In this document: one piece after another, positions 1,626 through 61,978 of the stretch
Position numbering within the stretch: position 1 is the stretch's first letter
Layout of the letters: the number at the start of each line of letters is the position of its first letter
From: Carcharhinus longimanus
Taxonomy: Eukaryota
Assembly (NCBI GenBank): GCA_030264375.1
Contig: JASCQW010000119.1
Coordinates: forward strand, 10,945,896-11,009,895
Direction: 5' to 3'
Length of the DNA: 64,000 nucleotides
Notes under the pieces: generated by a model
What the model was told of the DNA's origin: nothing
Databases searched by the model: none
The model's input: only the letters and a program-made list of their open reading frames with translations
Position numbers and translations under genes: made by a program

Positions 1626-1652
1626 AATTGGAAGATCTGCAGCTTAAATGCA
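1626..1652 (+). CDS. 27-nt phase 1-1 microexon (E)LEDLQLKC, family B
   Basis: tttag|AATTGGAAGATCTGCAGCTTAAATGCA|gtaagt; paralogs at 23831, 42828, 61952. Confidence 0.75.
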
Positions 1653-1730
1653 GTAAGTAGCAGAATAAGTGAATATACGCTTTGGAATATCTGATAATCA
1701 GCACGAATGCTCTCTTACTATAGTGCACAG

Positions 1731-1754
1731 ATACAGACGGATTACTGGAAGCCA
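1731..1754 (+). CDS. 24-nt phase 1-1 microexon (D)TDGLLEA
   Basis: cacag|...|gtgcgt, open in phase 1. Confidence 0.35.
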
Positions 1755-1947
1755 GTGCGTCACTTGAACCACTTCCACAATCCAATCACAACAATCCATG
1801 TGTATCCTGAATATTACGAGCTACATCCATTGGCATCCTTCCAGAACAATGACACTGATGCCCGGTTTGAATCCCCAACTTATTTCTTCCCAAATTTCCT
1901 CAGAGCTAAGTTGAAGTTAGTGCTGTTTTTCTTTGCTTCTTCTTTAG

Positions 1948-2027
1948 AAGCCGCATTCTAGTTCTCCTGGGATTGCGTGTCCATGACTTGCTGAACAGGG
2001 AAATAGAGAGAGAAAAGATAGAGTACA
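1948..2027 (+). pseudogene. 80-nt coiled-coil-like exon, frameshifted (LRVHDLLNREIEREKIEY)
   Basis: Strong polypyrimidine acceptor, gtaagg donor, 1 nt short of 81. Confidence 0.4.
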
Positions 2028-2376
2028 GTAAGGGTGTATGGGCTCAGCAACTCAGACTAACGGGGAATGTGAATTACATAGAAATAAGTATAATTATATT
2101 GGAATTGGATGCATGTCACATAAACGGAATATTATGTCCAATCGCTCTTACGGTGCTTATGTCCCTTTAAGAGATCCGTCCATCCACCTTTATCTGTATT
2201 GGCGTATAAATAATCATCAGTAAAGGCATCTATAGCATTTGCTTCAACACAGCTATTGTAATAACTCAACGCAGTTGAGCAAATATTCCATTCGTTAAAT
2301 AGAGTGAGTGTCGTCTGCATCATGCTCCACTGATTTTCCATCAGATATACGACCGGTTTATTCTGTTTTCTCACAG

Positions 2377-2403
2377 AGCTAGATTCGGCGGGAAAAGGCT
2401 CAG
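2377..2403 (+). CDS. 27-nt phase 1-1 microexon (E)LDSAGKGS
   Basis: ttttctcacag|...|gtaaag. Confidence 0.6.
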
Positions 2404-2472
2404 GTAAAGCAAGATATTTTCTAAGATATATTTTCTCCATATGATTCAACAAAGGGTAACATGATTTTACAG

Positions 2473-2830
2473 CATTAGCTTCATTGATTTGCAATAAATG
2501 ATAAATCACGTATATCTATGCTGCGTTGTCGTCCATTCAAGGAGGTATATTCTGTTCATTTCTTGGGAATGTCAGCCGAAAAGTCAGATGTAGTCTTTTT
2601 GGAGTCTCGAGTCCATTCCCATTGCAAAAATGCCTTTTTTGCTGCAGAAAAGTGAATCAACCCCATGACCCGGGTTTTCCACCAAAACTAACTAACTGTC
2701 ACTCAGTTAATACGAGGGAAGACAAATTGCAGGTTGCCGTGTGATCTGTTGATTCAGGGGTGTGTTCGATTCGGAAGCAAACCAGCACCGTCAAAAAAAG
2801 GGTTGATGGGACACATAAATATTCGTTTTC
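2473..2830 (+). pseudogene. Degenerate IgV-like exon
   Basis: acag acceptor; IFCSFLG, SRVHSH, SVDSGVCS across frames. Confidence 0.4.
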
Positions 2831-3008
2831 TTTAACTTTTTTATACACTTGAAATAAATAATTAGAATTCTCAGTTTTTAACGTGAAAATTCTCCATGTT
2901 CTTGCACGTTTTGACTGGAGAGAGCTGTTATATAGCCTACAACTCTCTCTGAAAGACGATTCGTTTTTCTGTTATTCATTTAATTCTTTCCCCATCTTTT
3001 TACCATAG

Positions 3009-3230
3009 CCGTCCCTGAGATATAGAAACGTATCCTTTTGAATCACCTTCAGAAACAGTCAGTTTCTCCAATTGCCTCATTTCATACTTTGAATGGGTTT
3101 CTTTCAACGTTGTTTTGGACATCGGTTCCATATGCCAAAAGGAGGAGACCCGTGGACTCATCTATGCGACAAAGGCCACATTTTTGAGTGGAACCGGGAG
3201 GCAATGTTGTTATGGAATAATGTATATAAC
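3009..3230 (+). pseudogene. Degenerate IgC-like exon
   Basis: Strong acceptor; AVPEI, LNGFLSTLFWTS, EETRGLIY. Confidence 0.35.
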
Positions 3231-3399
3231 TGTATATTATGGGACATTATTGTTCTCATTTATGAGATCGGCTTTACATTCACTGATGTGTGCATTGCCA
3301 AAATACCGCTACTATTACCTAACAGCTAACTGAAACATGATTTACATCACTGCCAAAACAACAACCAAATTCAGGTTGTCAACCAATTCGCCTTCGCAG

Positions 3400-3426
3400 A
3401 AAAAGAGCACCGCAAAGAGGATGATG
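3400..3426 (+). CDS. 27-nt phase 1-1 microexon (E)KEHRKEDD
   Basis: ccttcgcag|...|gtaaga. Confidence 0.6.
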
Positions 3427-3695
3427 GTAAGAATTGCGAATCTGAACTTCCGTTGAACTTATTTTCCGTTGTTCTGTCAAATGAACTTGCCCACTGCCAA
3501 GTTCCAATTTCATTAGCCACCGGTCTTATCAGACAAGAAGTACCTGACCCCACTTTAAATTAATGAGATGAAAATGTCGCGGGACTGACAGCAAATAAAA
3601 TTAAATATGGACACTGGGATAGTCGGAGCCGAACGATTCCCTCCAACAACTTGGGACCAGACCCACAACGTAACAACCAGCGACCGTTTCAACAG

Positions 3696-3722
3696 CTTCC
3701 CTCTGAATTACAACAGTTGTAC
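3696..3722 (+). pseudogene. 27-nt microexon candidate (stop in phase 1)
   Basis: tttcaacag|27 nt|gtaagg. Confidence 0.35.
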
Positions 3723-3856
3723 GTAAGGTTTCCTCAGATTTCAAGAGCAATGGCATTGTTTTGCGCGCTGCCCCAATCGAAACATAATCTTAATTACCTG
3801 AATTCCCCAATGCGAGACGTGGGTTTGAAGCACTTTACTCATGCCTTCTGCCTTAG

Positions 3857-3874
3857 CGTTGTCCAGCAGCACTG
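3857..3874 (+). CDS. 18-nt phase 1-1 microexon (A)LSSST
   Basis: ccttctgccttag|...|gtaata. Confidence 0.4.
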
Positions 3875-4108
3875 GTAATAGCGGACTAAAAGCATAAATC
3901 AGTTTCGGTCACAAGACTATAAACTGTGATTAATCGAGATTTATTTTTTTAGAACGAAAGCTCGAAAATGGATGTTTTCAGCTGAATCATGTTATACTTT
4001 AATATGTTAAAAATGCAATAAATTTCACCAAATTATTTAAATAAATCAATCATTTCAATGAATTATGTAACTGTCATTTGATGGCTATAGAAATGTTTCG
4101 TAAAACAG

Positions 4109-4334
4109 ACGTTTGTGGGTGTCATGCTCTGGGAAAAACGAACCGGTGTCCTTGTGTTGTGATATTGCAACTGACTCCAGGATTTTTTGCCGGGATTTTT
4201 ACTCCTTCCGGCTGCATTGAAGTCAGAAACCTCTTTAAGGAGGTAGCCACACAGCCATCAAAGAAGAAGGACGACAGTGGGCGTTAAAGTGGTAAAACAA
4301 TACGTAGACCAAATTACTGACTGTTCGGTCCATG
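4109..4334 (+). pseudogene. Degenerate Ig-like exon
   Basis: aacag / gtaagg boundaries; EPVSLCCD, DDSGR*SG (decayed DxGxYxC), KLLTV. Confidence 0.35.
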
Positions 4335-4419
4335 GTAAGGTGAACGGACCAGTTGAAATGCTTTGATGAATTGATGTAAACACGAATTGAAAGATTTAGT
4401 TCGCATCATGGCAATTAAG

Positions 4420-4440
4420 CATTTAACACCACTCTACGAA
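4420..4440 (+). CDS. 21-nt phase 1-1 microexon (A)FNTTLR
   Basis: aag|...|gtaaga; weak acceptor. Confidence 0.3.
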
Positions 4441-4659
4441 GTAAGAATTTCTATGAAGACGACTATTTCTATTTTAATAGGTTCGTGAGATATCGATGTT
4501 TTCGGCATTTGTTACCTACCCTTACCCGGCTACATCCTACAGTTCAAAGACGTGCGGGTTAGGTTGATTGGCCATGCTAGCCCTTGTGTTACGGGGATCA
4601 GCAGGGTAAATGTGAGGGTCTGAATGACCTCCTTCCGTAGTGTAGGGATTCTATGAACT

Positions 4660-4920
4660 TATTTCCCTGTGATTGGATGCAGCGGCAAATTAACAATACA
4701 TCGCAGTACAATGAGTCTGTAGTAACATGGAGGAAAGGAGGAAGGGAGGTTTTTCTACTCGTTCTGGCATTAATAAACAAATTGCCCCCTTCACCTTCCA
4801 ACAACTGATGAAATCTGTGATGGCTTCCATCATTGTGATTAGATTTATTTTACAGATGATTCCTTTCAAATTGCATTCCGCCCACGACTGCGTTCTCCAA
4901 TCCCAATAAAAGATAAATTT
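4660..4920 (+). pseudogene. Degenerate IgV-like exon
   Basis: SVVTWRKG ... QQLMKSVMASIIV ... TDD. Confidence 0.3.
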
Positions 4921-5539
4921 GCACTGGTTGCGTGCATTTCTAATCCCGTAACGTTATAATCCTGTGTGCTGATGATGCCCTCGAGTCAAAGGCATGGATC
5001 TGAGGTGCAATTCTTCGTGCTGAGTGAGGAATAATGTCCATGTACAGCCCGTGGTGGTGTATGTACGGGCAGACGAATTCATCATAATCGTTGGTAAATG
5101 TTTAATTTATCGCGTTTGTTCGTCTCTCTAACGGTCATTCTCAACGTATACTCCAGAAGACTTAGAACATTGAACATTACAGCGCAGTACAGGCCCTTCG
5201 GCCCTCGATGTTGCGCCGTCATCTGCATATCCAACTACTTGCCACCACCAGCTCATGTGTTATTGTTAGCCTCACTTAGGAGCAAAATGAATATACCATC
5301 TGTGCTCATGTTGTTGCGTAACCTTTCCTCACACCCAGCTCCATGCTTGAAACTTAAATCCTTCCATAGTGTTGCCATCATTTTTCCCCATGCTTCCCGA
5401 AAACACATGATCAAAACTACCCCCGCCACCATGTGTCTCTGATGACATGGATAAAGTGTCCATCTTCATGTGGGCTTGCCTACAACTGTTAAAAGGTTGA
5501 TCACATGAACTTCCTCAACCCACCGCCAAATGCACATTC

Positions 5540-5780
5540 GTAGTATTGTTCTTGACTGTGCTAATTGTTATCCAATTGTCGCAGCAGTTTAACTTTCAAT
5601 GTTTCTCTTCCAATTACCCAATCACGGAAATTACTGTTCTGTGGAACATATGCTAATTCCCTTATATTTTGACATTGTCTGAAACCAGTTATCCCAACAG
5701 AATCTCTCATGAGACCTGCATGGTCGCTAATCTGCGAGACTGGCAAGCTGAATGAAAGCGCTTTGTTCACTGCGCTCATT
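5540..5780 (+). pseudogene. Degenerate IgC-like exon
   Basis: NYPITEITVLW ... TCMVAN. Confidence 0.4.
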
Positions 5781-5932
5781 CAGAGGATTGAATTATTTGA
5801 GTTTGGCATCAACTCTCGACGCGATTCTTTCAGTATTGCATCCAATGACTTGATAACGCTTGAAAAAAATATTGTTTGAAATCTTCACTTGGCACTTCAG
5901 CTCAAATTAACCAACCTCTGTTAATGATCAGA

Positions 5933-6257
5933 GACATAGAACCCTACAATGCAGAAAGAGGCCCTTCTGCCCATCGAGTCTGCACGGACCACAATCCCTC
6001 CCAGGCCCTACCACTAATCCTTCCCATTAATTCCTCTAACCTACGCATCCCAGGACACTGAGGGACAATTTTAGCATGGCCAATCAACCTAACCCGCACA
6101 TCTTTGGACTGTGGGAGGAAACTGGAGCACCCGGAGGAAACCCACGCAGACACCAGGAGAATGTTCAAGTTTCACACTGACAGTGACCCGAGCCGAGAAT
6201 CGAACCCAGGTCCCTGGTGCTGTGAAACAAAAATGCCAACCACTGTGCTACCGCCGC
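5933..6257 (-). mobile_element. HE1-type tRNA-derived shark SINE
   Basis: tRNA-like head, core ggttaggttgattggccatgctaaattg, CR1-like tail. Confidence 0.9.
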
Positions 6258-6714
6258 CAGATTAGCGGCCATGCAGGTCTCATGCCTCTTCCTAGTTCCA
6301 AACAATCACCAACTATTCTATTTCATTACTGACTTGTCTCCACCCTGCTTCACTGCCTTATGGAAAGTTAAATTGCCCGTGCCTTTACTCGTAGCAATGC
6401 TCGTTCATCTAACAGCACCTTGCCCGCTGGTTCGCACGGTTCCTATCAAGCAATAATTTGATAAAAATGTTCTTTCAATCTTCTTTTTCAGCTCTCTCAA
6501 TGCCCTCACCCACTTACCTTTGTAATCTAATTAACTCTCACAATCCTTTTACACCTCTGATTCCAAGCTTTTTTAACATTTCTCCTGGTAGTCGCACCAT
6601 CGTCACTTTGACGTGCTGCCAGCTATCTAAGGCAGGAACCCTGAAATAGTGTCCCAACATGTCTTCGTCTATTTTCGGAGCATTAAATGATTCCCTTGGA
6701 TTGCTATGCCACTT

Positions 6715-6990
6715 TTAGTTAAGGGTCTACCTGAATTCGTCATTGATGTAACTTGCATGCGCATAGCATCCCCGCAGATGTTGTTAGCCTCCTTTGGGTG
6801 ATCAGACATGAAGGTGTTCATTGCATATTGAATTGAATAACTATTTTCGGCCCGAAGATTCGAGTTAAAGTCATATTTCAGGATTTTATCGTGGCGGGAG
6901 GCGCTTTAGTTACGTTTCCAAAGAGGTTGACTTGATAATCGTGATTTAATAATGTTGATTTGATCAATTGAACTTTGCAATACATACGAT
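6715..6990 (+). pseudogene. Degenerate IgV-like exon
   Basis: SLLWVIRHEGVHC ... IFQDFIVAGGALVTF. Confidence 0.4.
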
Positions 6991-7249
6991 GGCAGGCAGG
7001 AAAAACGTTTTCATCCAACCTAGGAAAAGCAATGATAACCAAATACAATAATTTGCTAAACAAAAATGTGGGTCAATCTGAACTGGAAAAATGGATTGAT
7101 AGTGGCTAGTTGAGGGGAACGCCAAGTCCGGCACGTGGGAGGCTTATTTAAGGCCAGTTCACCGAAGGGGAGGACAGTCATCTCCCGAAGGAATGTCTTT
7201 GAAAATGAAGGATAGAAATGGCAGGATTCGGGAACCATGGAAGTTTTTA

Positions 7250-7465
7250 ATGTATAGGGGCTGCCTGAGGATATGATGGAAACAGACACGTTAGCAACAC
7301 TTAAGAGGCATCTGGATGGATGCATGAATAGGGAAGAAATAAAGGGATGTGAACAAGAGAGGGCAGAAAGCGTTCTTTTTGTTGTTAGTTAGGTCATCAT
7401 GATTGCCATCGGCTAGGAGTTCCATTCTGTTCCTGTACTATAATTTTATTTGTTTTTTTTGTTCG
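7250..7465 (+). mobile_element. CR1 3' end fragment
   Basis: ETDTLATLKRHLDGCMN, followed by a 3' tail. Confidence 0.75.
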
Positions 7466-7927
7466 CATGGAAGTCTCTGGTTATAAGAGTGTTGTAAATG
7501 CATGGCACCTGCAGAAGGAGAGGTGTCAGTCATGGGTACTTTATTTGCAAGTACCCATTATTTGTTTATTTACAAACAAATCGGCACAACCATCAGTCTA
7601 CTGTACTGCCCAGTGGGTCCACATGCCGAAATATCGGATTCAATATGAATGATTGACAAATGGCATTTAAAAAGGCATTTAAATTTCACACCCAAACATC
7701 TAAGATGCTCTATTATTAATACAATGAAGGTGCATACAGTAAAACGTTATATACATATATATGTATAGACCTTCAAAGCAATTTGCTTCAATTTGAACTT
7801 TGGAAATAACATATTCAGAGTGGGTCTGCTCATTGAATACTTCAAATCAATATTAGCCACTTAAAACATAAAAATTACATGTCAAAGGTTTGTGGTTATG
7901 TGGTTATAATGCTTATTTCTTTAATAG

Positions 7928-8211
7928 TGGACGGCTGGTGAAAATTAAGGAGTAATCCGAAAACGATATTATAACCCATCGTGATAATATCAAGAACGGT
8001 ATCCCAAACTATCTTGAAGAAATGACAATGGAAGTCGTCGTAATGTCTGAAGTGCAATGGCGGGGCAATCTGAAAATGTCGCCAATATTGGGACCACAAA
8101 TAGTGATTTGTCATTTGTCAGACCATTCAAATCACCTGAAAAAAAAAACTCCCACGATGGGACGCGTGGCCGATGGTTCAATATAACATGTCATCCAGCA
8201 AATGTTCGCAG
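7928..8211 (+). pseudogene. Degenerate IgV-like exon
   Basis: ttaatag / gtgaaa boundaries; PIVII, EVQWRG, DLSFVRP, DG. Confidence 0.3.
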
Positions 8212-8381
8212 GTGAAAGATAATGATATGGAATAACGGCAAAATACCGATTCCAGTTGCTTACAGCAATGAAAGTTAAGATTGATATTGACTAGAGAATA
8301 ATTGAATCATTCCCATTTTGCTGCATACGGTGACAATCTAGGCTTTGTAGTTCACGTTATTCCTTGTATTCATTCTATTAG

Positions 8382-8417
8382 GTTTAGAAAATCTTAAAGC
8401 AGCTTTAGTGCGATCGG
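8382..8417 (+). CDS. 36-nt phase 1-1 microexon (G)LENLKAALVRS, family C
   Basis: ctattag|...|gtgagt. Confidence 0.7.
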
Positions 8418-8704
8418 GTGAGTGCACAGTGCTTGTGTTTGGTTAAAGTTTAGCTTTTTTTAGCGAGCTTTCATCTTATTTCGATCAAACATTTGTTTTC
8501 CATTATTCCCCACTGGTAGTCGTTATTAAGGAAGTCTCAATGTATTTCGCAATGTTTAAAAGAAACGAAGACATGTAATCAACGTATTGTCAGCATTCAA
8601 CCTGAGTAATTATTTGAGGATTCACTTTTACTGCATTCGTTCCATAACCACTTAAGGATTATATTCCACGTTGAATGATTTTATATATATATATATGTGT
8701 GCAG

Positions 8705-8960
8705 AAATGATAACAATATCATTCACTCTGAAACACATGATCTGCTTTCAATAGTGTTGCTGAGCAAGCATTTTTAATGGTGGACAGAGGATTTGAAAAC
8801 AAATATCTAGATTGGACGGTAGTTAGGGATGAACAAGGATTTATTCAAAGTGAAATCAGACAAAGACGGTTGAATGAAAGCAACATCAAGTAGCCAAGCG
8901 TATTTTGAAGTGCGGTAATGCATCTCTTTTGAAAAAAAGAACGATGACAGTGTTAATTTT
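8705..8960 (+). pseudogene. Degenerate IgC-like exon
   Basis: WWTEDL ... NKDLFKVKS. Confidence 0.35.
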
Positions 8961-9059
8961 CATTCAATAACGTGTCGTGAACAATAGTTCGCAGTTTAAT
9001 AGAATTGAAATAAATTACCAGGCCCCTCAACGCATTTATTTCCGGTTATTTTATCACAT

Positions 9060-9086
9060 AAAATAATCTGATTGCCAAGCAAAAAG
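9060..9086 (+). pseudogene. 27-nt microexon (E)NNLIAKQK, family A, acceptor mutated
   Basis: cacat (for cacag)|...|gtaagg. Confidence 0.5.
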
Positions 9087-9419
9087 GTAAGGAGTGTGAA
9101 CCGACATTTCCTTTGAATGTGCACGTTTGATTTCGATCATTTACAAGTTTAGGATTGCGCAATTGAATGAGAAGGTTTAAATGTTACGTCCCGGCTTCCA
9201 ACTAAACGGTTATATGTTAAATGTTCATATGTCACATACTGTAGGGAATAATCGGCAATAAAATTAAAGTGAGATACTTGTGAATTAACGAGAAGCAATG
9301 ATGACAATGGATTGCTTCTAACGGATATGACGTGTGTGAAGAACATGCTTACTTAAAAATTATCGGCAGTCTTCGGAATTCGGACATTCTCGCCCCTGAG
9401 TTTATTTTAAGATAACAAG

Positions 9420-9670
9420 CGCACTTTAGTCCATGAGTCAAACGTTTTTGTTCCCCAAATAAATTGCGAAACTTCATCTAGATGGCCAGTGTGACACTTG
9501 CTGAAGTCACAATTGTCTTATATATTTGTATGAAATGATAACTGCTGCTGACAGCCTGACTGCTCAGCTTGATCCATTGATAGAACATGGTTTGTTCGAA
9601 GGCCTTTTCTGGACATTTCAGTTTGAACACAGTGTTTGCACTTGAAGACGATTTTGAAGAAACAGCGTTG
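9420..9670 (+). pseudogene. Degenerate BTN-type IgC exon
   Basis: INCETSSRWP ... DSLTAQLDPLIEHGLFE. Confidence 0.45.
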
Positions 9671-9713
9671 CTCCTTGTTTTCCTGCTCCTGTGTTATCTG
9701 CAATCTGGTGGAA
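9660..9713 (+). pseudogene. Leader-like hydrophobic exon remnant (ALLLVFLLLCYLQSGG)
   Basis: Hydrophobic core, phase-1 gttagc donor, about 540 nt upstream of an IgV exon. Confidence 0.35.
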
Positions 9714-9909
9714 GTTAGCTTTCAAACATAAAATGTCCAGCTCTGCATAACAGAGTTATTTTGACAACTTGCATAGCTTTGAGAAGCAAAGGATAACAAA
9801 GAAATTAATTCAAACAATTTCCATCTGAAAAGACGTCCACTTATCCCCTGTCAAGATAACATATGAAATCAACAGTACCAAGATACTTTCAACCATCATC
9901 CTTCTTTAA

Positions 9910-10020
9910 GTGTTTATTTGTGTGTGTGTGTGAGTGGTGTGTGTGTGCGCGCGCATGTGTGTGGACATCTGTGTGCATGCGTTTGTGTGTATGTCCAGGA
10001 CATGCATCTGGATGTGTATG
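9910..10020 (+). repeat. Imperfect (TG)n microsatellite
   Basis: Directly visible. Confidence 0.9.
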
Positions 10021-10251
10021 TTGGATATTCAACATGATTAAATTGTTACAATTCCTCATTATGCCAACCAGTTTTGAACTTTTCTGTAACTAAGTTCTGC
10101 TTCGTAATAAATTTATTGGCAGAAGCCTGTGTGAAGTTTACTTTCTGATGGATATATGTGATGCCGTCGTCATGTTCGTGAGTGTGTCAAAAGTTGATGC
10201 TATTTTTTCGACCTGGCCATTAGTGGGCTTAGAATTAATTGCACACTTTCC

Positions 10252-10609
10252 AATTTCTATCTCATAACAAATATGCTTATTTCCCTTTCAGTTGATGCAG
10301 TGTACTTTCGCTGATTAGTTGGATTTCGTTGACTAAGGCCTCCTATGGCATTTTAGGATGACGTTCTACATTTATATGCAGCTCAGATACTAAAGAGTTG
10401 ACAAGAATACGTAAATTCGTGACAATGTCGCACCATGGTATATCGGTGCAGACTACAAAATCATACAAGTGAAATATTGAGAAGTGGAAAAGGAAGCAAA
10501 GGCAATGCTGCCGCCGGTATGAAAAAATTCGTTCTGCTTGATAAATCAACTACGCCTTCATTCCTTCTGATGGAATATCCAATAATGCTTTGTTAAATTA
10601 AAATAAGAC
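10252..10609 (+). pseudogene. Degenerate butyrophilin/B7-type IgV exon
   Basis: DAV ... LLWHF, DDVLHLY ... QEY, KGNAA, SDGISNNALLN resemble BTN IgV (VVHLY, KGNAAL, DG..EA.L.L). Confidence 0.6.
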
Positions 10610-11758
10610 ATACTTTATGTTTTACTGCTTATAAGCAGCAAGAGTCGTGCAACTAGATTATATATTGTACCGTGCTGAAAGACAGGTAATTCATAATGTT
10701 AGAAATGCTTTTGTAATTTGATACATAGAGAATCGGAGGGTTGAACTTGGTTACTTTACTCCAATCCCCCAAGGCACCACATATGATTTTTGCTGGATAA
10801 CTGTTGCTTTCTGTAGAATGTTGTACGTTTTTCATATTTTGAGTTTGAAGATGTGTCTATAGGCCTTTTAAACACTCACATTGTTACGCTTTACAATTAA
10901 ACATATGTTTCCAATTAATTTTTATATGATACTAGCCAGTCCCGATTTAATGAAAAACGGGTTTACATAGGGGCAGGGAAATCTCAACGTATTTGTAGGA
11001 TATGCTCAGTCATTCAACGAGATTTTCTTATTAATTTATTTTGTTTAGGTATGGGCGTCGTTAACAAGACAAACATGTGTTTCATATATCTAATTGGCCC
11101 AAAGTGAATGGGTGGAAAGGCTTTATTTTTAAGTGGACTGTTAGTAGTCAGGAACATTGCTTTGGACCTGGAGTCTGTTAAACACAGAGATTCATCCTCT
11201 TTACCTCAGATCGTAACATGCTAAGTTTGGGGAAGTGTTATCTGTTCATGATTAATGTTTAGAGATCCACTAACATAAAGGCTTGCTTTAAAAGAAGGGT
11301 AGACAAAGTGTTATATTTAAATAACCAGGAACCTCAGGTTGAGTATCCAACATACAAGTCCACATGCATGTTCTGCACATTATGAAACTCAGGTACAGTT
11401 CGATGAAATGCTGTTCGAATTACACAAGGAACATTCATTGCTTAAAGCAAAAATATCAGAATTCGAGTAACACTCAACAAATGATACAACCAGACTTGAT
11501 GAATTTTAGAAGCTTTCTGTAGTCGTTCTATAGTTTTGTGCTGTCTTTAAGCGCTGATAGAACATTTACCTTTTGCTGGTTCGGAGCTAGTTATGTGTAA
11601 GACGTTTGTGAAGCTGGCAGGATTAAGAATTGACTGTCCAGCTAATGTAATTGCGATTAACTGCCTTTAAATGCTTCAGGTGGTCTGGCTCCGCTTCTGG
11701 TTGAACTTTTGGCTCAACACATGGCTGGACATCTGGTTCAACTCTCCTCAAAGCAGTT

Positions 11759-12365
11759 ACATAGCAACATAGCACAGTACAGCATATTACAGGCCTTTCG
11801 GTCCTCAATGTTGTGCCTAGCTATGCCCAAACCCAAGATCAAGCTATCCCACTCCCTATCATTCTGGTGTGCTCCATGTGCCTATCCAATAACCTCTTGA
11901 AACTTCCTAAAGTGTCCGAATCCACTATCACAGCAGACAGTGTATTCCACACCCCAACCACTCTGAGTGAAGAATCTACCTCAGACATCCCTCCAAATCT
12001 CCCACCATGAACCTTATAGTTATGCCGTCTAGTAACAGCTACATCCACCCAACGAAATAGCCTCTGCATGTCCACTCTATCTATCCCCCTCATCATCTTA
12101 TAAATCTCTATTAAGTCGCCTCTCATCCTCCTCCGCTCTAAAGAGAAAAGCCCCAGCTCCCTCAACCTTTCCTCATAATATCTACCCTCCAAACCAGACA
12201 GCATTCTGGTAAATCTCCTCTGCATTCTCTCCAATGTTTCCACATCCTTCTTATAGTGAGGTGACCAGAACTGCACACAATATTCCAAATGTGGTTGCAT
12301 TAAGGTTCTCTACAGTTGCAGCATAACCCCACGGCTCTTAAACTCAAACCCCCTGTGAATAAATG
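11759..12365 (-). mobile_element. CR1 LINE 3' fragment
   Basis: ORF 11839-12300 PHLEYCVQFWSPHYKKD...GDLIEIYK. Confidence 0.95.
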
Positions 12366-12373
12366 CTAATCTC

Positions 12374-13895: not shown

Positions 13896-13979
13896 GCCCC
13901 TTAGCATCCTAAAGTGAGTGTGTTAGAAAGAATTAATGAGCTAAATATATGGGTTGACAGGGACAAGGTTTGGATGAGG

Positions 13980-43450: not shown

Positions 43451-43452
43451 AG

Positions 43453-50780: not shown

Positions 50781-50849
50781 GCGCTCTTGAACTCAATACA
50801 TTTTTGGTTCAAACATGAACAAAAGAATTGAATTCCACAGTTGAATGAA

Positions 50850-51265
50850 TCCTACCTCCGTATTCGACCGAGTTTGGCATTAAGGAAAAGTAACATAACT
50901 GGAGTCAATGAGAATCTGTGAAAATCCTACGCTGGTTGGAGTCATACCTGTCACAAAGGATGATGATTGTTTGTAACTGCATGTCAATCATCTCAGCTCC
51001 AGGGGTCACTGCAGAAGGTCCTCCGGGTAGCATTATAGACCCAACCATCTTGAACTGCTTCAAAAATGATCTTCCTTCAATCATATGGTTAGAAGTAGGG
51101 ATGTTTGCTGATGACTACATTATTTTCAGGATACTGAAAGTATCCTGATACTGATACTGAAGTAATCTGTGATCAAATGTGGCGAGAGCCGAACAAATCG
51201 AGGCTTGAACTGTGAAGCAGAACGTAACATTCGTGCCAGCTAAGTGCTAGACAGTGACCATAAAA
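50850..51265 (+). mobile_element. LINE RT fragment (CR1/L2 group)
   Basis: LRWLESYLSQR..PGSIIDP..NDLP..MFADD. Confidence 0.85.
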
Positions 51266-51649
51266 AAAATGTACACAACAACTTCCAAGCCTTCTGTCAG
51301 TCATAAATGTTTAAAACACCCTTTAACATTCAGATCACAGTATTGGTCACACTAAAACAACCTGGACAAATGGCTCCCATGCCATGCATATTCCTATTCT
51401 ATTCCATCAAACCACATAATTTGTGAGAAGAATTTCACAATTCAAGTAAAGAATGTTTAGTGCTCTTTCTTTTACTAATTTTCTTAGCGCTGTGATTAAA
51501 TGTTACTGCACTCTTAAACTTGAACAATGAAAACAAAGAAAAACAAAGAAACTTACGGCACAGTAATAGGCCACCAATTGTGCCGATCATAGTTCTCCAA
51601 CTAAACTAAAGAAAATAAACCCTCTGCTCTCATTTAGTCCGCATCCCTC

Positions 51650-53700
51650 TCATTGAGGTTTACAGCATGGAAACAGGTCCTTTGGCCCAACTTTCCCATT
51701 TTTAAAGACTGATTTTGAGCTAATCCCAATTTCCCGCCTTTGTTTCATATCCGTCTACACTCACTGTACCTATGTGACTATCTAAATGTTTTTTTAAAGA
51801 CAAAATTGTACCCGCCTTTCTTACTACATCTGGAAGCTTGTTCCAGACACTCACCACCCTCGCTGTGAAAAGATTGCCCCTCTGGACACGTTTGCCCCTC
51901 TCCCCTTTCTCCTTAAACCTATGCCCTCTCATTTTAGATTCCTCTACCTTTGGGAAAAGAAATTGACTATCTAGCTGACCTATGCTGCTTATTATTTTAT
52001 GGACCTCTGTAAGATCACCTCCTGCACTCCAGAGAAAAAAGTCACAGTCTATCCAGCTTCTGCTTGTAATTCAATCCATCAAGCCCCAGTAGCATCCGAG
52101 TATATCTTTTCTGCACTCTATCTAGTTTGATAATATCCTTTCTATACTAGGGTGACGGGAATTGCACACAGTATTCCAAGTGTGGCTTCACCAATATCTT
52201 GTACAACTTCAACAAGACATTCCAACTCCTGTATTTAATGTTCTGACTGATGAAACCAAGCATGCCAAGTGACTTCTTCATCATTCTGTCCACCTGTAAC
52301 TCCACTTTCAAGGAACTATGAACATGTAACACTAGATATTTTTGTTCTGTAACTCTCCGCAACGCCCTACCATTAATTGAGTCACTCCTGCCCTGGACTA
52401 CCAAATCTATTAATATGCATCACCTCACATTTGTGTAAATTGAACTCCATCTGCCATTTGTCAGCCCACTGGCCCAATTCATCAAGATCCAGTTGCAATT
52501 GAAGATAACTTTCTTCATGGTCCACAATGCCACCAATCATAGTGTCATCTGCAAACTTACTAAGTACTTTTCCTATATTCCCATCAAAATCATTGATTTA
52601 AATGACAAATAACAGTGGACGCAGCACTGATCCCTGAGGCACACCGCTAATAACAGACCTCCAGTTTGATAAAACAATTCTCAACAACCACACTCTGGCT
52701 TCTGTCAAGAAGCCAATTTTGTATCCGTTTAGATAACTCACCCTGGATCCCATGAGATTTAACTTTATGCAACANNNNNNNNNNNNNNNNNNNNNNNNNN
52801 NNNNNNNNNNNNNNNNNNNNNNNNNNNNNNNNNNNNNNNNNNNNNNNNNNNNNNNNNNNNNNNNNNNNNNNNNNTTAGGCTGATTGGTTTTACCAAATTG
52901 ACACTATTCTCCCCTGAATCTGGCTAAGTCAGGGGTCCTATTTGTAGATACACAGGGTAGAATAGGTGTAGGGTGATGCGGCGGCGCGGGCTTGTTGGGT
53001 CGAAGGGCCTGTTTCCTGTGCTGGGTTGTTCTTTGTTCTTTGTTCTCCATAGCTATCGTAAACCTAATAGAATAATGATCACTGGTCCCAAAATGATCCC
53101 TCAATAACACTTCTGTCACCTGTCCTTCCTTATTTCCCAAGAGGAGGTCAAGCTTTGCCCCCCTCTCTTATTGGGCCGTCCACATACTGAATGAGAAATT
53201 CCTCCTGAATACACTCAACAAATTTATCTCTATCCAACCCTCTAATATGGCTGTCCCAGTCAATGTTCGGAAAGTTAAAATCTCCGGCTATTACCACTCT
53301 ATTTTTCTTGGAGCTATCTGTAATCTCCTTACATATTTCCTCCTCAATTTCTCGCCGAATATTTGGGGGCTTACAATGCAACCCTATCAAAGTGATTTCC
53401 ACCTTCTTATTTCTCAGTTTTATCCATATAGACTCAATGGCCGAACCCTCGGATATACCCCCTCTCAGTACGGCCGTGATGCTTTCCCTAATCAAAAATG
53501 TAAGTCCCCCTCCTCTCTTACCTCCTTATCTATTTTTCCTATGGCATCTGTTCCCTGGAACATTGAGCTACCGGTCCTGTCCCTCCCTTTGCCATGTTTC
53601 AGTAATTCTATAATATACCTGTCCCAAGCACCCATCCATGCCCTGAGTTCATCGGACTTGCCCCTCAGGTCTCTTGCGTTGAAATAAATGCAGTCTAACA
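51650..53700 (-). mobile_element. CR1 LINE (RT + endonuclease) with gap and nested CR1 tail at 52890-53040
   Basis: ORFs 51720, 52147 and 53148 (GDFNFPNIDW) and 53492 (YFNARDL). Confidence 0.95.
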
Positions 53701-53779
53701 TGGACTTCCTTTGTTCTCTGTCTGGCTTTTGCCCGATCTGTCTGGTACTAGGATTACTGGCACTGCCTTTACTACTTAA

Positions 53780-55250
53780 TGTATGTCATGTTCTCTGTTC
53801 CATCCTTATTCATGTGCCCATCCAGATGCCTCTATACTTTGCCTGCTCCTAGCCTCCTCTTGAAGTGTGTTCCAGGCACTGCCACTCTGCATGATAAATT
53901 TCCCTCTCACATCTCCATAAGCTTCCCCCTCACCTTCAACGTGTGCCTGCTTGTAATTGACACTCCCGCCCTTGGAAAAAAAGAGCCTCAGCCTCTCCAA
54001 ACTGTCAATGTCTCTTATAATTTTGTAGACATCTATCAGATTTACCCTCAGTCTCCGTCCTCCCTGTGAAAACACTCTGATGTTTTCTTTCAAACTCTCC
54101 TCATAGCCAACACTCTCGAGACCAGGCAACATCTTGAACCTTCTTTTCAAACTCTGCAAAGCTTCCACATCCTTCGGGTAGTGTGGCGTCCCGAGCTGCA
54201 TGAAAAATTCCAATGCGGCCAAAGCGGGGTTTTATATAGCTGGAACATGATTTCCTGACTCCTCTACTCAATGCCCCGGTGTTAAATGCAAGTAAGGCAT
54301 ATGCTTTCTTACTCATCTTGGCCACATGTGTTGCTACTTTTAGAGAACTGTGGACCTGGACGCCCAGATCCCTCTTTATGTTAATGTGCCTAAGGGTTCC
54401 AAAGATTACAGTACATTCCACACGTAACTTTGATCCCAAAAAAAGTATCACCTTGCATCTGTCCATGTTAATATCCATCTGCAATTTCTGTGCCAACACC
54501 TCAAATCTATCTATACAGAGTTGCATCATGTGACAATCCCAAGGCACTATGAGAAACTTCGCCAATTCTGGCGCCATCCACTAACTTACAAATCAGACTA
54601 TCCAGCCCGCATATTCTACTCCAGATCATTTATGTGCACTGCAAACAAAAGATGTTGCAACACTGATCCCTGCACAAAACAGTAGCGGCAGATCTCCATT
54701 CTGAAAAGCACTCTTCCACCATTAACCTCTGTCCATATAACCAAGCCAGCTTTGTATCCAGCTCGCCATCCCACTATAATTCGCACGTGATGCAATGTTT
54801 TGTACCAGTCTGTCGTGCAGGATTGTGTCATACGTCTTACTAAAGTCTATATACACTAAATTCCCTCATCAATTATTCATCATACCTCTTAAAAATCTCA
54901 ATCAAATTGGTGAGACATGGCATTTTCCGATTAAAACGTGCTGTCTATCAGTAGCTACTTCGTTTGCTTCCAAATGTGCATATATAACGTCCTCAGTATC
55001 TACTCTAAAAGCTTTCTCAATACTGATGCGGGGCTCACCAGCCTAAAAAAAAATCCCGGATTATCTGTGCTTCCTTTCTTAAACAAGGGAACAATAGTGG
55101 CTATTCCCCAGTCCTCTGAAAACTCTCCTTTCCTTGGGGTCATAAATGATGGGAAGATATTTGTTAAGGCCCCAGATATTTTTTGCATTGCCTCCCGCAG
55201 TGACATGTGATAGATACGACCTTGCCTCCGGGATTGTATACCCTAATGCA
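53780..55250 (-). mobile_element. Older CR1 RT fragment
   Basis: DWGIATIVPLFKKG, QGSVL..INDL, RDLGVQVHSSLK. Confidence 0.9.
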
Positions 55251-55254
55251 GAAG

Positions 55255-56045
55255 GTATTTCCTCTACCCACACTATTGTCAAAGTGACTGAGTCGAATTC
55301 TTTCAAAGTCCTTCTCTGCTGCATGATAATCTTCCTGTTTTACATTGCAGCGGTTCTTTCTCACACTTCAGGCAACGTGATGGAGTCGACTTCTCTCCGA
55401 ATCATCCTCTGCCAGCTCGGCTGTTGATCGTCCTCCAGCTTTTCACTGAAGGTGTTGTTTGTTCCACCCACAGCACAGTCGAGGTAACAGAGTCGACGTC
55501 TCCCAGAATCCTACTCTGCTGCCTCATTTGGATAATCCTCCTTCTACCCGGAGTACAGTTGATGTGAATGAGACGACTTCTCCCAGAATCCTCTTCTGTC
55601 GCCTCTGCAGCATGTTCTTCCTCCTATTTTTTCACTGGAGCAGTTCTCCCTCGACCCACAGTACTGTCGAGGTAACAGAGTTATTATCTCCCAGAATCAT
55701 CCTCCGTCGCATCTGATAGATTATTGTTTCCCTGTCTGTCACTGGAAGGGTTCTTTCTCTACCTAGATTGCAGTCGAGGTGACTGAGTCGACTCCTCCAA
55801 GAATCCTCCTCTGCGATGTCTGCTGGATGACGTTCCGTCTGTTTGTCACTGGAGGGGTTGTCCCTCTACTCACAGTCCAAGCGAGGTGACTGAGTCGAAT
55901 TCAGTCGGAATCATCCTCTGCCGCCTCCACTCGATGATCTTCCAGTGTTTCTTTGGACTGGTTCTTTCTCTAGCCACAATACAGTCAAGGTCTCTGAGTT
56001 GACCATTCCCAGAATACTCCTCTGCGGCTTCTGCTGGATGATTTG
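55255..56045. repeat. Diverged tandem repeat, ~105-bp unit, ~8 copies
   Basis: Recurrent tctacccacag..gtcgaggtgactgagtcgac..cccagaatcctcctctg. Confidence 0.9.
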
Positions 56046-56379
56046 CTTTCTAATCAGCCCCTAGGTGTGAACTGAAATTCATTTTTATGTACACGAACGT
56101 GCTAATATCAAATCTCATCATTATCTTTTGTTGATCCTTCCGCTTCTTTACTTATCGATCTTTGATACCCAAAATGTAATCAGTTAATCTTTTTGCACTT
56201 GAATACACTCAAAAGTCCTGCAGCCACGTGATTGTCTAAATCATCGGTATAAAGATATTCAATTTCTCTCTTAGCCCTGTTGTCATTCCACGCAAATGCA
56301 ACTCCTTGGATGAGTTTGTGTGAAGAATGATGGGTGAATCCAGAGTTTGATTATTGCGCAAGAGCGATCTAAATTAACT

Positions 56380-56720
56380 GGAAATCTTTCAAAAGTGCTT
56401 AAGTCTAATTGCTGGTCAACATGTGGAAATGTATCCACTCTGGCAGATGATGTTTACTATACAGAACTGTATGTCAATTAGTCTCCATCTCCAGAAAGGC
56501 AAACCTGTGCAAGATGAAGTTGAACTGTATTTCTGACACAATTGGACATCAGTGAAGCGTATGGTTAAAAAAAAAAGTGACTGTTTAGAGTGAGTTATTA
56601 ACAGGCTTGCTATGATTTCCCTCGAAACATGAGTCACCCTATGTATGTCCCTAATTTTTTTAGATGCATTGAAAGATGAGATCTGAGGATTTACACCCAT
56701 TTCGGTGCTGTCCAAATCTC
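56380..56720 (+). pseudogene. Degenerate IgV-like exon
   Basis: IAGQHV, ELYVN*, SEAYG..LF.SELLTG, FRCIE. Confidence 0.4.
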
Positions 56721-56789
56721 ATGATCATACATATCCGACCGGCAACAAAAAAAGTGCAATGCAGATTGCTGATTCTTTTTTAACGCGAA

Positions 56790-56816
56790 AAAAAAATCTG
56801 TTCACATGCGGACTAG
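56790..56816 (+). pseudogene. Family A-like microexon with lost acceptor (KNLFTCGL)
   Basis: gtaagg donor; acceptor altered, A-run slipped. Confidence 0.35.
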
Positions 56817-58219
56817 GTAAGGAGATTGGCGTGGACTTCCGTAAGGGCTGCTTGGTGACGGTGAAAGTTGAATAAATACCATATTGTGTTAAAAATGACG
56901 TTTCTGCGTGTCGTCATCGTATGGTCCTAGTGGTCTGAGTGATATTCCGTCTTTGTATTCCTAGGCGCGTTGTTATTCATTAATGTCTTGACATTCATAT
57001 TAATTAAGAAATTTTAACAAAGGCCTTCTCGTCAGACTTACGTTATCCGCACAGGTTCACCATTCAAAATGATTGGTGATTGCTTATGCAATACACGAAG
57101 TTTAAAATTCATTTCCAATTGTCAGTAAATTTTAAAAACAAAATTCTTTCAATTCTGTCTGTGATAATGCAATTCGTTTCACTGTTCTTTCCGTTCGAGA
57201 TATACACATTATCACTATTTATTATATAAGGAAAAAATAAAATCTGAGAATCCCCATTGTACTTATCAGGGTAAATTTTACATGCGTGCTCCCAAAATGA
57301 TTCACCCCACGAGTGCACACACTGTTGTTCTGCTTCATAAATGGAACCATTTGTTAATCAAAAGCTTCAGCTGGAGTTTATTATTGAGGAAAGTGAGCTA
57401 TCGCATTTTGGCAGAAATGATAGCTCCACGCATGTGTAGACTGAAAGACATAGTTTTCAGATTTGTGCAGGACTGGAATAATAAGTGTTCAGGTGCATCG
57501 ATATTTTAAGGTCGCAGAAATATTGAGAGCTAGTTAGAAAAACATGTGAGGCTTTGTGATTCACAAATGGAGATGTGGATCAGAAATAGCGTGGGATTAA
57601 TGTTTAGCCCTTATGAAGCTTCCCTTCATCCAAAACTGGACACTAGCGTACAGTTCTGGCATCTGCACCTCAGGAAGCATGCAAATGTCCTCAAATAGCG
57701 CAGAACAAATGTACCTTCAGCATTCCCATGCTGCGGGATTTTAACTAAATTATTCCTTTTCGTCAAGCTGGAGATGTTATCCTTGTCGCAAAGGACAGTA
57801 TTATAAAATTTGGCAGAAGTGCACAAGGATCTTTTTTCGTAAGGTATTGAGATAAAAAAAATCAGCTAGCTGATAAGTCACAGACATAAACTCTTGGAGG
57901 AAAGTCGCGGGTGTATATAAAAAATAAAATATCCACATAAAACACGTTGTGGCAATTGAAACTCGTTGCTTAGCTGCATGATATATATAAATATATATAT
58001 ACGTATGTATGCATGTATTCACACATACATGAACAACATTTGCCATAATTACACGCTAATATCATGCTGGTTCTAAAATCAGCTGTTGCATTATTCCAGC
58101 GAATTTTGGTCTATCCATTGGCTGCAAGACGTTACCTATCAATTTTATGTACAACCGTACAATGCAGGGTTGTTGCATTCGAACTTGTTATTACTTGTCA
58201 ATTTTATTTGTCGCCACAG

Positions 58220-58246
58220 ATAAAATGCTAAACGACACAAAGGACG
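58220..58246 (+). CDS. 27-nt phase 1-1 microexon (D)KMLNDTKD, family A-like
   Basis: tcgccacag|...|gtaaga. Confidence 0.65.
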
Positions 58247-59544
58247 GTAAGATGATATTCATACAAACAGCCATTATTTAATTGCTTCTCAACATTTAAC
58301 CAAATAACAAATCGCCTGCCTACCTCAGGTGTTTCCCTGTTTAGGGGGCCAGTAAGTACCCGATGTTCTATTTTATCCATATGTCAAATATTTCCATTTT
58401 GTTAAAGACCAAAGTGGAACAAAGCAAACAAATATACTTGAATGAAAAGTCACAGGTTGAATGTTGAAGGCATTTATCACCCGACGAAAATTTAGTTAGA
58501 GGCCAAGAGTTTGGCATCTGGTTTAAAAAAAACAATCCCAATTTTGGGGAGATAAGTCAATTGTGCAAGAGATTCGATAACTGGAGGTGTGTTGTGATGA
58601 CTTCGCGATAAGGGATAGCAGACCCAGAAGACTTGACGGATTTTAATGATGTAGGAGATTTACAGGGGCTGGAGTTTTTAACAGAGGCAGGAGTGGCCAT
58701 GAACTGCACCAACATTGCTAGGAGGTGTATCAAGAGTGTTCTGGAAGCACACTTGTTAAAGGTTGAGTCCAACCAAATTTTACCAAAATTAGAGTTGTGG
58801 TCAATTGAGTGTTTTGTGAAGTGCCGTCAGATGTATCGACATCCAAATTTTCCTCCAAACAACTATCTCAACCCAACCTTTACAAGAATGTGCAGCGCAG
58901 GATGGGCAGATTCTGCTCAATGTGAAATTCTCAGCTACATGTCAGATTCAATCGATTAATTAAACACACCGAATATTTCAATTTTCCCTGTTTTTTAATA
59001 TTCGTTTTAAAATTTTATTTATTTTATCCTCATTTTAGAATGATTCTGGAGTTCAACGTGGTCGAGCGTCACTGCGTAAAAACACATCGAACTCGTTAAG
59101 GACTAGTTATTTATCTATTTTTGAGGGAGTAGCATTCAGGTTACGGACCCTTCTGTTGTTAATGGTAATTCCAGAGAAAGAGAACATGAGCACTGGAAGA
59201 CAATATACCACGGTTTTCACTCATATTGTTTTGAAACTCATTCAGTTAATTGCTGATCTGCTTGTTAAGTTGTCCTGGTACAGCAACAAAAACCTATTGG
59301 CATGGAAGAATAAATAACATATACAAATATCACATGCAAATATATTAGGAATTCATCTTTAATACCATGCAGGGAACGTAAACAGCTTTCAGAAGCAAAA
59401 GTTAATATCAAAGGTTTGATTCGAAATGGAAATTGTGCAATCGTTACTTAAAATCAGAATCATGAAAACATTTCAAAAACGCTTTGAATGATATATTGGA
59501 CTATGTTGTGGGCTGTGATGTCAGCTTTTTAATTCATCACATTT

Positions 59545-59860
59545 TTACCCTTCAAGTAATCGGACCAAGTCACGAAGTTCTCCAGAATAGCTGCTTTAAT
59601 CAAGATATAGCGTGGTCACTGGAAAATCACAGATTGTTGGTGGTAATTAGCTTGCACCGAGAACTGAGGAATGCACAAGCAGTTATACTTTCAAATTCGA
59701 TTACAAGTAATTAGAAGATGTCAATCACGGTTTATGAGTTATCTCTATCCACTTGGAGTTAGTTGTTAAGGTTACACTATTCAAATATTAAACCAATCAC
59801 AATGACATCACACTTGCTAAATTGTGATATCCAATGAATGCAAATAGTTAATCAAATACT
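59545..59860 (+). pseudogene. Degenerate BTN-type IgV exon
   Basis: TLQVIGPSHEV (compare FxVIGP), YSNIKP, LNC. Confidence 0.4.
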
Positions 59861-59867
59861 TAAACAG

Positions 59868-60230
59868 GATGGCACGGTGGCACAATGGTTAGTACAATAG
59901 TCTCATAGCGCCAGGGATTCAGATTCGATTCCAGCCTTAGGTTAGTGTCCGCGCAGAGGCTGCATGATCTCTCCATGTCTACGTGGTTTCATCTGAGTGT
60001 TCCGGTTTCCTTCCGCATTCCAAAGATGTACGGGTTAGATAGATTGGCCATACGAATTAGCCTCTTAGTGTCCAAAGACATGTTGGTTAGTGGACTAGCT
60101 GGATATGTATGCTTCACTAAAGGGCTACAGCAGGTGGAGGGCTTGGGCAAGACGCTCTGTTGAAGAGTTGGTGCAGAATCAATGGGTTGAATGGTTTCAT
60201 TCTGCACAGTAGGGATTTCGTGAGTCTATG
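59868..60230 (+). mobile_element. HE1 SINE
   Basis: ggcacggtggcacaatggttag head, core, tail. Confidence 0.9.
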
Positions 60231-60282
60231 CTTCTAAGTCAGTTGAGTTAAGAGTCATTATTGCATGTTATCATTTTCCCAG

Positions 60283-60500
60283 CTTGTGAATGTGTCTGTA
60301 GATATCACTCCCCTTTTCCAGTTCCGGATGTCTGATTTAATAAATTCTCTCAGACCCATCGCCTTGCTGCTTATCTGTGAAAATTTTAATCAGAAGAATT
60401 GATTTTTATCATAGCAGCTTTCTAAACTGATCTGATCATTAACCAGTTCAGGCTCCTTTATCACCAGCTAATCAAACAGATTGTATGTCCTCTCTTTAAC
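60283..60500 (+). pseudogene. Degenerate IgC-like exon
   Basis: ttcccag acceptor; CRYHSPFPVPDV*. Confidence 0.35.
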
Positions 60501-61951
60501 ATGCTCTGATGGCCCCGTGCATGTTGAGTGCTGCACGGCAGTGTCAGCCGAGATGTTGCGTCTCCTCCTTTGCTGGGAAAATTATATCACAAACTTTTGA
60601 TTTAGAATTCAGAAGTTGCACACTAAAAAACACCTGACGTGATAATTTTCTTGAATGATGCAGGCAAGCTGAAGTGCACTGTATGATTATGAAAACACAA
60701 TTTTTTCTAAGAAAAAATAGGCAATTTCTCCATTTGTTTTCTTTAAAATAGTAAATCGAGCCCAATTTCAGAAATTGTGCTATCAGTCTTTGCATACCTG
60801 TGTTGGATTTCTAAACAATTGTGTCAGAGAGTCGTAGAAAGGTAGAGCGCAATGAATTACTTTTCGGCCCAACATGGCTGTTCTATCAAGGGGAATTGAA
60901 GGCCCCCTTTTCATTCTACACATCTACAATGACCCATCCATCCATATGTCCACTCATTCATAGATTTCTGCAATCCATCATGCCATCTTTGTCAGTCCTA
61001 ACAATTAGTTTCAGTCTCCAGCAGACCATAGCTCTGGAGGTGGTAAAACAGACCATTTAGTTCATCGAGTCTGCTCTGCCTTTCAAAGAGATCACGACCG
61101 ACCCAATATAATAATCCTCAACTCCGCATTTTATCCATCTCTGCATAAGCCCTGAATGCACAACTCAATAAATGTCTGTCTGTCTCAGTCCTGTACACAC
61201 TTAACGACTAAACCTCCGCAATACCCTACTGTAAAAAAAATCCGAAGATGCATAACTCACTGAGACAAGAAATCTGTACTAAACTCTGTCTTTAATGAGT
61301 TAACCATTGCTCTGACATGATGAACCTGGTGCACAGAATTTGTTAAGTCTTTTGATTTGTCCCATCTCTTCATTGCGAAGTTCAACATTTAGGTCACTGG
61401 GAAAGTGTATATACATTCATAAACACAAATTATTCGAACAAAAATCGTGTCCTTCCCCAATTTGATGGAGAAGAAAGTACAACTCCAGTTTATTCAGGTA
61501 ATGGATCTCACTTTTCTTTGAAAGACGACCGCCCCATCACCAAAACCTTCACGTCCATCCTACATTGTGGTGCCAAAAATTCTATAGATGACCCCAATTG
61601 AGCGTTGATAATATTCCATGTGAAATTTATAGTCGATCCCACTCATGTTCGCAAGTTCATCCCACGCTATTCTACTGACTGTGTGCGCCACAATAACATT
61701 CTGTCAGTAGAGTGTAAAGTGATTTTAATTGTAGCATACAGCCCGTGACACAATGTTATTGTTTAAAAGTAATATTTACTGAGTTCAAATGACCACTAAT
61801 TAGCAGATGCACGTTTAACTCATGTCACCTTAGATATTATTCAATCTAATCATGTCCTTCACAGTAAAACTCCAGGGGAACAACTGATAAGAAATTAACA
61901 AGAAACTCCACTTTGTAAAAATATTAATCATAATATTACTTTGTCCAGCAG

Positions 61952-61978
61952 AATTGGAAAAACTGCGGAAAAAATGCA
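61952..61978 (+). CDS. 27-nt phase 1-1 microexon (E)LEKLRKKC, family B
   Basis: ccagcag|...|gtaagt (NAGNAG acceptor). Confidence 0.75.

Follow-up and report, generated by a model that had tools for sequence, protein, structure and literature searches.

Four intact, constrained copies of a 27-nt microexon subtype within a predicted shark gene for a coiled-coil rod ending in a B30.2 domain

Why would one 27-nucleotide (nt) microexon recur four times, fully intact and about 20 kb apart, in a stretch of shark DNA? The question is raised by 64,000 nt of the Carcharhinus longimanus genome (positions 10,945,896 to 11,009,895 of contig JASCQW010000119.1, here C119; the whole stretch is called the window), in which an initial annotation had picked out four copies of such an exon, termed family B, and had offered purifying selection or a ~20-kb duplication unit as explanations. 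Our analysis suggests, with a probability of about 0.8, that a single exon subtype is present here in four intact, constrained 27-nt copies of phase 1 and that these belong to a predicted gene of ~134 microexons encoding a coiled-coil rod plus a B30.2 domain. The features concerned are as follows, in window numbering.

1626..1652, + strand: family B microexon copy 1, 27 nt, phase 1-1, ELEDLQLKC
23831..23857, + strand: family B microexon copy 2, ELDDLRQKC
42828..42854, + strand: family B microexon copy 3, ELDELRMKC
61952..61978, + strand: family B microexon copy 4, ELEKLRKKC
1..64000, + strand: the whole window, interior of one predicted gene that extends from ~212 kb before the window start to the terminal B30.2 exon

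All four copies were found where they had first been placed. Each is bounded by an AG acceptor and a GTAAG donor, is 27 nt long and open in phase 1, and encodes the peptide claimed for it, and the spacings between them measure 22,205, 18,997, and 19,124 nt. Copy 4 carries a NAGNAG acceptor at 61949, which may allow a 30-nt form. Pairwise, the copies are identical at 19 to 21 of 27 nt (70–78%). A profile built from them scored the four copies at 47.9 to 51.9, values that are circular because the profile was trained on these copies; the gap to the next best site in the window, at 8.6, is not circular, and its size implies that the window holds no tail of decayed family B copies. An exact degenerate family B pattern had four matches in the 2.68-Gb genome, all of them these copies, and a control pattern had none.

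The surroundings of the copies point to a single very large gene. We scanned 557 kb, beginning 215 kb ahead of the window start and ending 342 kb beyond it, for microexons by splice signals only. On the + strand, candidates numbered 101 at 27 nt and 73 at 36 nt, whereas other lengths averaged 24 (standard deviation 6); the - strand showed no excess (22 of 27 nt and 36 of 36 nt, against 26). Phase 1 was open in 93 of the 101 candidates of 27 nt on the + strand, compared with 52 and 50 for the other phases. Moreover, a profile trained solely on the neighboring paralogue found 94 sites scoring at least 15 on the + strand and three on the - strand. The resulting gene model has 134 exons (86 of 27 nt and 48 of 36 nt), encodes 1,350 amino acids, and has a mean intron of 4.15 kb; the window contains 18 of its exons and, in addition, an uncertain one of 18 nt. 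The two sizes alternate, with 87 changes along the model against 61.6 ± 5.3 after shuffling. Large hydrophobic residues fall at positions 2, 5, and 9 of the 36-nt class (0.94, 0.81, and 0.88) and at position 4 of the 27-nt class (0.60), from which it follows that a pair of exons amounts to 21 residues, or three heptads. Consistent with this, the predicted rod has a power at period 3.5 of 0.586, against 0.188 ± 0.029, and so shows the heptad repeat by which a butyrophilin tail would be recognized; it is likewise built of the 9- and 12-residue phase-1 modules that mark the family described below.

The gene's terminal exon lies at C119:11288327-11288851, 342.4 kb from the window start and 278 kb past the window. 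It is an open B30.2 exon of 175 codons (Pfam SPRY, 1.9e-15), its best match in the PDB is BTN3A1 (8.5e-25), and its nearest Atlas clusters are SPRY and butyrophilin-like. The upstream gene ends in a B30.2 exon of its own, 265 kb before the window. In total we identified seven B30.2 paralogues, six on C119 (6.3–11.3 Mb) and the seventh on C81 (94.26–94.33 Mb), where it is built of microexons and sits inside a large cluster of B30.2 and Ig (immunoglobulin) genes. This upstream gene seems to cover ~1 Mb and to stand head to head with a third gene, in a region of which 9.81–10.15 Mb was only sampled. At C119:9.66–9.69 Mb two family genes apparently stand head to head, and a zone of 21-nt, one-heptad exons resembling those of chicken BG genes was noted in the neighboring paralogue at C119:9795896-9805895. 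Once spliced together, the 27- and 36-nt microexons would encode a long coiled-coil rod made of segments and ending in B30.2.

The family B exons bear the marks of purifying selection, as had been proposed. The pooled proportion of synonymous differences is 0.59 and that of non-synonymous differences 0.21, with introns at background. All 12 comparisons of 500-nt flanks fell within the range of unrelated introns, in contrast to exons that are 70–78% identical. Invariant columns number 16 of 27 in the exons (6, 7, and 3 of 9 at codon positions 1, 2, and 3), against 0 of 27 in flanking intron. The terminal B30.2 exon points the same way: among the changes listed between it and run X3 of a relative, 6 are synonymous (123 sites) and 6 non-synonymous (396 sites), and there is no indel; the resulting ratio (omega) is about 0.3 (P 0.043; 7 of 13 with the X6 change added, P 0.018). 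Intron divergence in run X3 is ~5%. These results support the view that the family B copies are old paralogues maintained by selection. Chance survival through neutral decay of a dead gene is a highly improbable explanation for them. Intact copies are, to be sure, the ones preferentially found, and what may be a decayed 36-nt exon, with TG as its acceptor, sits 67.6 kb upstream of the window start. However, all four copies retain splice sites, frame, and the E, L, L, K, and C residues even though synonymous sites are near saturation; the copies are not accompanied by a continuum of decayed ones, a stop codon occurs in only 1 of ~130 profile-positive exons, and the terminal exon is constrained.

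What, then, accounts for the spacing of about 20 kb? The regularity is borderline, with a coefficient of variation of 0.09 and P 0.047–0.057 when the gene's own introns are resampled in sums of 5–6; adding, post hoc, a weaker copy 19,981 nt upstream of copy 1 brings P to 0.011. A higher-order DNA unit of ~20 kb, copied in tandem four or five times, would explain such regularity, and two further observations favor it. First, local exons are somewhat more alike than distant ones: those at 22342 and 38458 agree at 32 of 41 nt, and among the local 36-nt exons several are each other's nearest neighbors. Second, the neighboring paralogue, ~343–308 kb before the window start, has undergone a recent multi-exon tandem duplication of similar dimensions (blocks of 1.1–3.7 kb, 88–90% identical including introns, at offsets of 15.3–19.7 kb). 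Nevertheless, self-BLAST at two sensitivities and the flank alignments revealed no periodic homology, and at offsets of ~20 kb no collinear homology was found apart from dispersed repeats and the exons themselves. In addition to the 12 null flank comparisons, the exon content differs between units, with five, four, and five exons of differing types between successive copies. The duplication unit of the initial annotation is thus refuted as a present-day DNA repeat, and a tandemly copied ~20-kb unit is very unlikely as an explanation, being tenable only as an ancient, eroded event that the selection-maintained, microexon-built gene already includes. What survives is the weaker form of the claim, an old multi-exon tandem duplication, which is probable. 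In this scenario the family B copies would derive from ancient tandem duplication of a module made of a 36-nt exon, a 27-nt exon, and B, some 5–6 exons in all, that has since eroded; the spacing of ~20 kb would then arise because each module holds 5–6 exons at ~4 kb per intron.

As to what family B is, it resembles the first 27 nt of the 36-nt class at 11.1 of 27 positions and other 27-nt exons at 7.9 of 27. Since its L2, L5, and C9 fit core positions 2, 5, and 9 of the 36-nt class, we infer that it is a 36-nt heptad exon (core 2, 5, 9, and 12) shortened to nine residues, in which a cysteine would replace the core leucine at position 9. A 36-nt exon and a common 27-nt exon precede B in three of the four copies. 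The exon may form the end of a helical segment, in many cases with a non-heptad hinge next to it, and its cysteine could pair with that of a partner chain; its putative roles are those of segment cap, hinge marker, or inter-chain disulfide. Weaker members are found on either side, 18.4 kb ahead of the window start and 105 kb beyond it, and the motif is found in three exons of the neighboring paralogue.

Relatives were collected by a search of 1.84 billion protein representatives and a cluster look-up; word-indexed searches missed most members (0 of 509 candidates; 2 matches; one new among 107). The relatives are chondrichthyan proteins with only a coiled coil and SPRY, named automatically as TRIM39-like, TRIM69-like, A33-like, or nuclear-pore anchor-like; among them are XP_042192744 of a chimaera, XP_055510696 of a skate, XP_038672306 and XP_038668997 of a catshark, and XP_069775384 of an electric ray. 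The family B motif is present in three of seven family protein models (skate ELEDLKGQC, catshark ELVKLREKC, and chimaera QYQELKGKC); shuffled sequences gave a mean of 0.09, and the 148,661 residues searched in other B30.2 proteins gave one match. The skate and catshark motifs come after a 12- and then a 9-residue module, as in this gene. If the chimaera match is homologous, the subtype would be older than the shark–chimaera split. In three relatives, database isoforms are set apart by internal blocks of 9, 9, 9, 7, and 6 residues; these blocks, read from the protein sequences, are in line with skipped microexons. The neural program of alternatively spliced microexons is recognized by junction reads that reveal inclusion regulated by tissue.

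In a quick tree of 53 B30.2 domains, one row of which (TRIM_P0264) is long and poorly filled, the seven paralogues and nine relatives form a single clade of 16 rows with a Shimodaira–Hasegawa-like approximate likelihood ratio (SH-aLRT) support of 100 and a branch of 1.03. This clade is sister to two chimaera proteins (support 91). Two paralogues pair closely with catshark proteins; for the C81 paralogue the partner is catshark XP_038672308. A homodimer prediction for the skate family protein scored 0.01, which is no evidence either way. Outside the family clade, the turbot proteins P0222–P0224 (1,200–1,350 amino acids) have a signal-like start, a long coiled coil, and B30.2, and are a possible independent teleost parallel. 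A literature search, which covered titles and the beginnings of abstracts but not supplements or subscription journals, turned up work on butyrophilins, BG, TRIMs, and microexons but no description of this coil–B30.2 family.

Could such a rod also carry an ectodomain? The gene might encode a secreted or membrane-anchored protein, a butyrophilin- or BG-like receptor or rod, with its leader, Ig, or transmembrane exons hidden in gaps or missed and with the family B cysteines serving as disulfide staples. Two of the seven family models (skate P0151 and chimaera P0161) have a hydrophobic, signal-like beginning, near the 5' end of a paralogue (C119:9694798) there is a leader-like exon whose donor is strong, and one of the sister chimaera proteins combines a hydrophobic segment and short heptads with B30.2. 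However, leader-like matches are equally common on the opposite strand, the match at 9694798 does not rise above background, the catshark model of 945 amino acids begins without a leader, and the family models contain SPRY only. On both strands of the DNA searched around the locus, neither a BTN-Ig profile nor tblastn detected an Ig exon, so the IgV and IgC2 domains that define a butyrophilin were not found; Pfam likewise found no Ig in the 131 stop-free + strand frames of at least 62 amino acids. Genome-wide, none of the 150 scored among 928 V-set candidates and none of the 57 C2-set (C2-set_3) candidates falls at C119 6–11.3 Mb. The heavy decay of neighboring Ig exons, with which the intactness of family B had been contrasted, therefore drops out: no Ig exon was detected, and the neighbors are other intact microexons of the same gene. 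A RING/B-box profile gave zero matches in the searched DNA, and the family models are also free of these domains, the signature expected of a TRIM. All in all, we consider a secreted or anchored product unlikely, and because neither an Ig ectodomain nor a RING domain was found, the gene is assigned to neither butyrophilins nor TRIMs.

Two kinds of candidate were set aside in the course of these searches. Matches below the Pfam cut-off to SRP1_TIP1 and SpeFL were dismissed. A RING-like tblastn match at ~26.0 kb of the window (E 1.5e-4, 46 queries) contains a stop, and its opposite strand carries what we take to be retroelement-like sequence.

A number of points weigh against the picture of one constrained, ~134-microexon rod-plus-B30.2 gene or loosen parts of it. 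Judging from the - strand counts, ~4–7 of the 134 model exons may be false, and 44,907 bases (8%) of the gene span are N. No first exon or leader was found by scans or by comparing the 5' regions of four paralogues, which returned repeats and candidates at background level. The splicing of each exon and a single long transcript are predictions from sequence. The longest family model in the databases has 1,722 amino acids, and most have fewer than 500. Of the 15 X3 differences around the B30.2 exon, three lie outside the listed changes. Copy 2 shows no change in runs X3 and X5 of the relative among the 40 of 249 differences listed, an outcome with a chance probability of 0.23–0.29 that, taken alone, is uninformative. 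Elsewhere in the tree, butyrophilins and TRIMs are intermixed; therefore, the tree does not separate a butyrophilin from a TRIM origin. Finally, copy 1 lacks a common-type 27-nt exon before it, and a clear linker exon (for example, ELDSAGKGS or GSARHHTSE) follows B in only two of the four copies, so that the cap-and-hinge role is a loose one.

Comparison with known systems shows what is shared and what is not. Butyrophilins consist of IgV, IgC2, a transmembrane helix, a few heptads, and B30.2 (PMC4046983, PMC8813856, PMC12841164). Like BTN3A1 and its kin, in which cytoplasmic heptad repeats lead to a terminal B30.2, this gene has both elements; unlike them, it would use ~134 microexons where butyrophilins have a few heptads, it yielded no IgV, IgC, or transmembrane exon, and its B30.2, with a divergent PRY part, belongs to a separate, long-branched clade. 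Chicken BG proteins have IgV, a transmembrane segment, and 13–36 exons of 21 (or 24) nt, and are described without B30.2; the soluble BG tail (zipper protein) regulates actin–myosin (PMC4046983). Both systems have a very long coiled-coil tail made of many small exons that expands by duplication. However, where BG proteins show IgV and a transmembrane segment followed by many 21-nt heptad exons, no Ig was found here, and the exons measure 27 and 36 nt, each pair making three heptads, and number at least 130 over 555 kb, with B30.2. The TRIMs (TRIM21, pyrin, TRIM39/69, and A33) share the coiled coil and C-terminal B30.2, whereas in this gene and the family models no RING or B-box was found and the coil is built from microexons. 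The chondrichthyan coil–B30.2 models belong to the same B30.2 clade and have the same 9- and 12-residue modules but are automatic models and mostly far shorter.

The protein would serve as an oligomeric spacer, probably in the cytoplasm, on which B30.2 heads are offered to a ligand, working like the heptad-plus-B30.2 tail of a butyrophilin, or like a BG tail, without the ectodomain. A more far-reaching proposal, which we put forward only tentatively and which may well be wrong, is that of a distinct chondrichthyan class of giant B30.2 proteins, with more than 130 frame-neutral microexons forming an arm of ~200 nm, an ancient cysteine cap, predating the shark–chimaera split, that staples or hinges it, and a geometry set module by module by exon duplication and skipping. 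If transcribed as predicted, the gene would belong to a cluster of very large vertebrate genes, rich in exons, that are annotated only as generically named fragments. It would extend the butyrophilin/BG principle of a coiled coil built exon by exon to a three-heptad module of 27 + 36 nt and more than 100 exons, and it offers a test case for the splicing of long microexon runs in multi-kilobase introns. The four copies are a detail of this gene; what they add is an exon subtype whose conserved core cysteine can be followed through sharks, skates, and chimaeras.

The other predicted microexons in the window are listed below.

2377..2403, + strand: 27-nt microexon of the non-heptad linker type, ELDSAGKGS
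3400..3426, + strand: 27-nt microexon, EKEHRKEDD
8382..8417, + strand: 36-nt heptad microexon, GLENLKAALVRS
21144..21179, + strand: 36-nt heptad microexon, ELDQMKEVLKRA
22342..22368, + strand: 27-nt common-type microexon immediately 5' of B copy 2, AQRLDYKEK
24656..24673, + strand: candidate 18-nt microexon (uncertain), AVIEDI
33127..33162, + strand: 36-nt heptad microexon, ETDHLKGALQLA
34180..34206, + strand: 27-nt common-type microexon, EQNLWRKEK
35699..35734, + strand: 36-nt heptad microexon, ELENAIGALKSS
38458..38484, + strand: 27-nt common-type microexon immediately 5' of B copy 3, EQRLSDTEK
43453..43479, + strand: 27-nt microexon of the non-heptad linker type (moderate confidence), GSARHHTSE
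44068..44094, + strand: 27-nt microexon of the non-heptad linker type (moderate confidence), EIDGEDHPL
47809..47835, + strand: 27-nt microexon, ERKSNAKDK
48850..48885, + strand: 36-nt heptad microexon, ELDRVKKALADT
58220..58246, + strand: 27-nt common-type microexon immediately 5' of B copy 4, DKMLNDTKD

The window also contains, at 11200–18600, 26000–26420, and 51600–55250, what we take to be relics like long interspersed nuclear elements and long terminal repeat retroelements, mostly on the - strand, together with what are presumably many copies of short interspersed nuclear elements. Beyond it, an open frame ~483 kb before the window start presumably represents a fragment like a retroviral envelope, and a cysteine-rich exon on the - strand, ~419 kb after the window start, looks to us like tectonic and likely belongs to a neighboring gene. 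A diverged tandem array with a unit of ~93–100 nt occupies 55250–56050 of the window.

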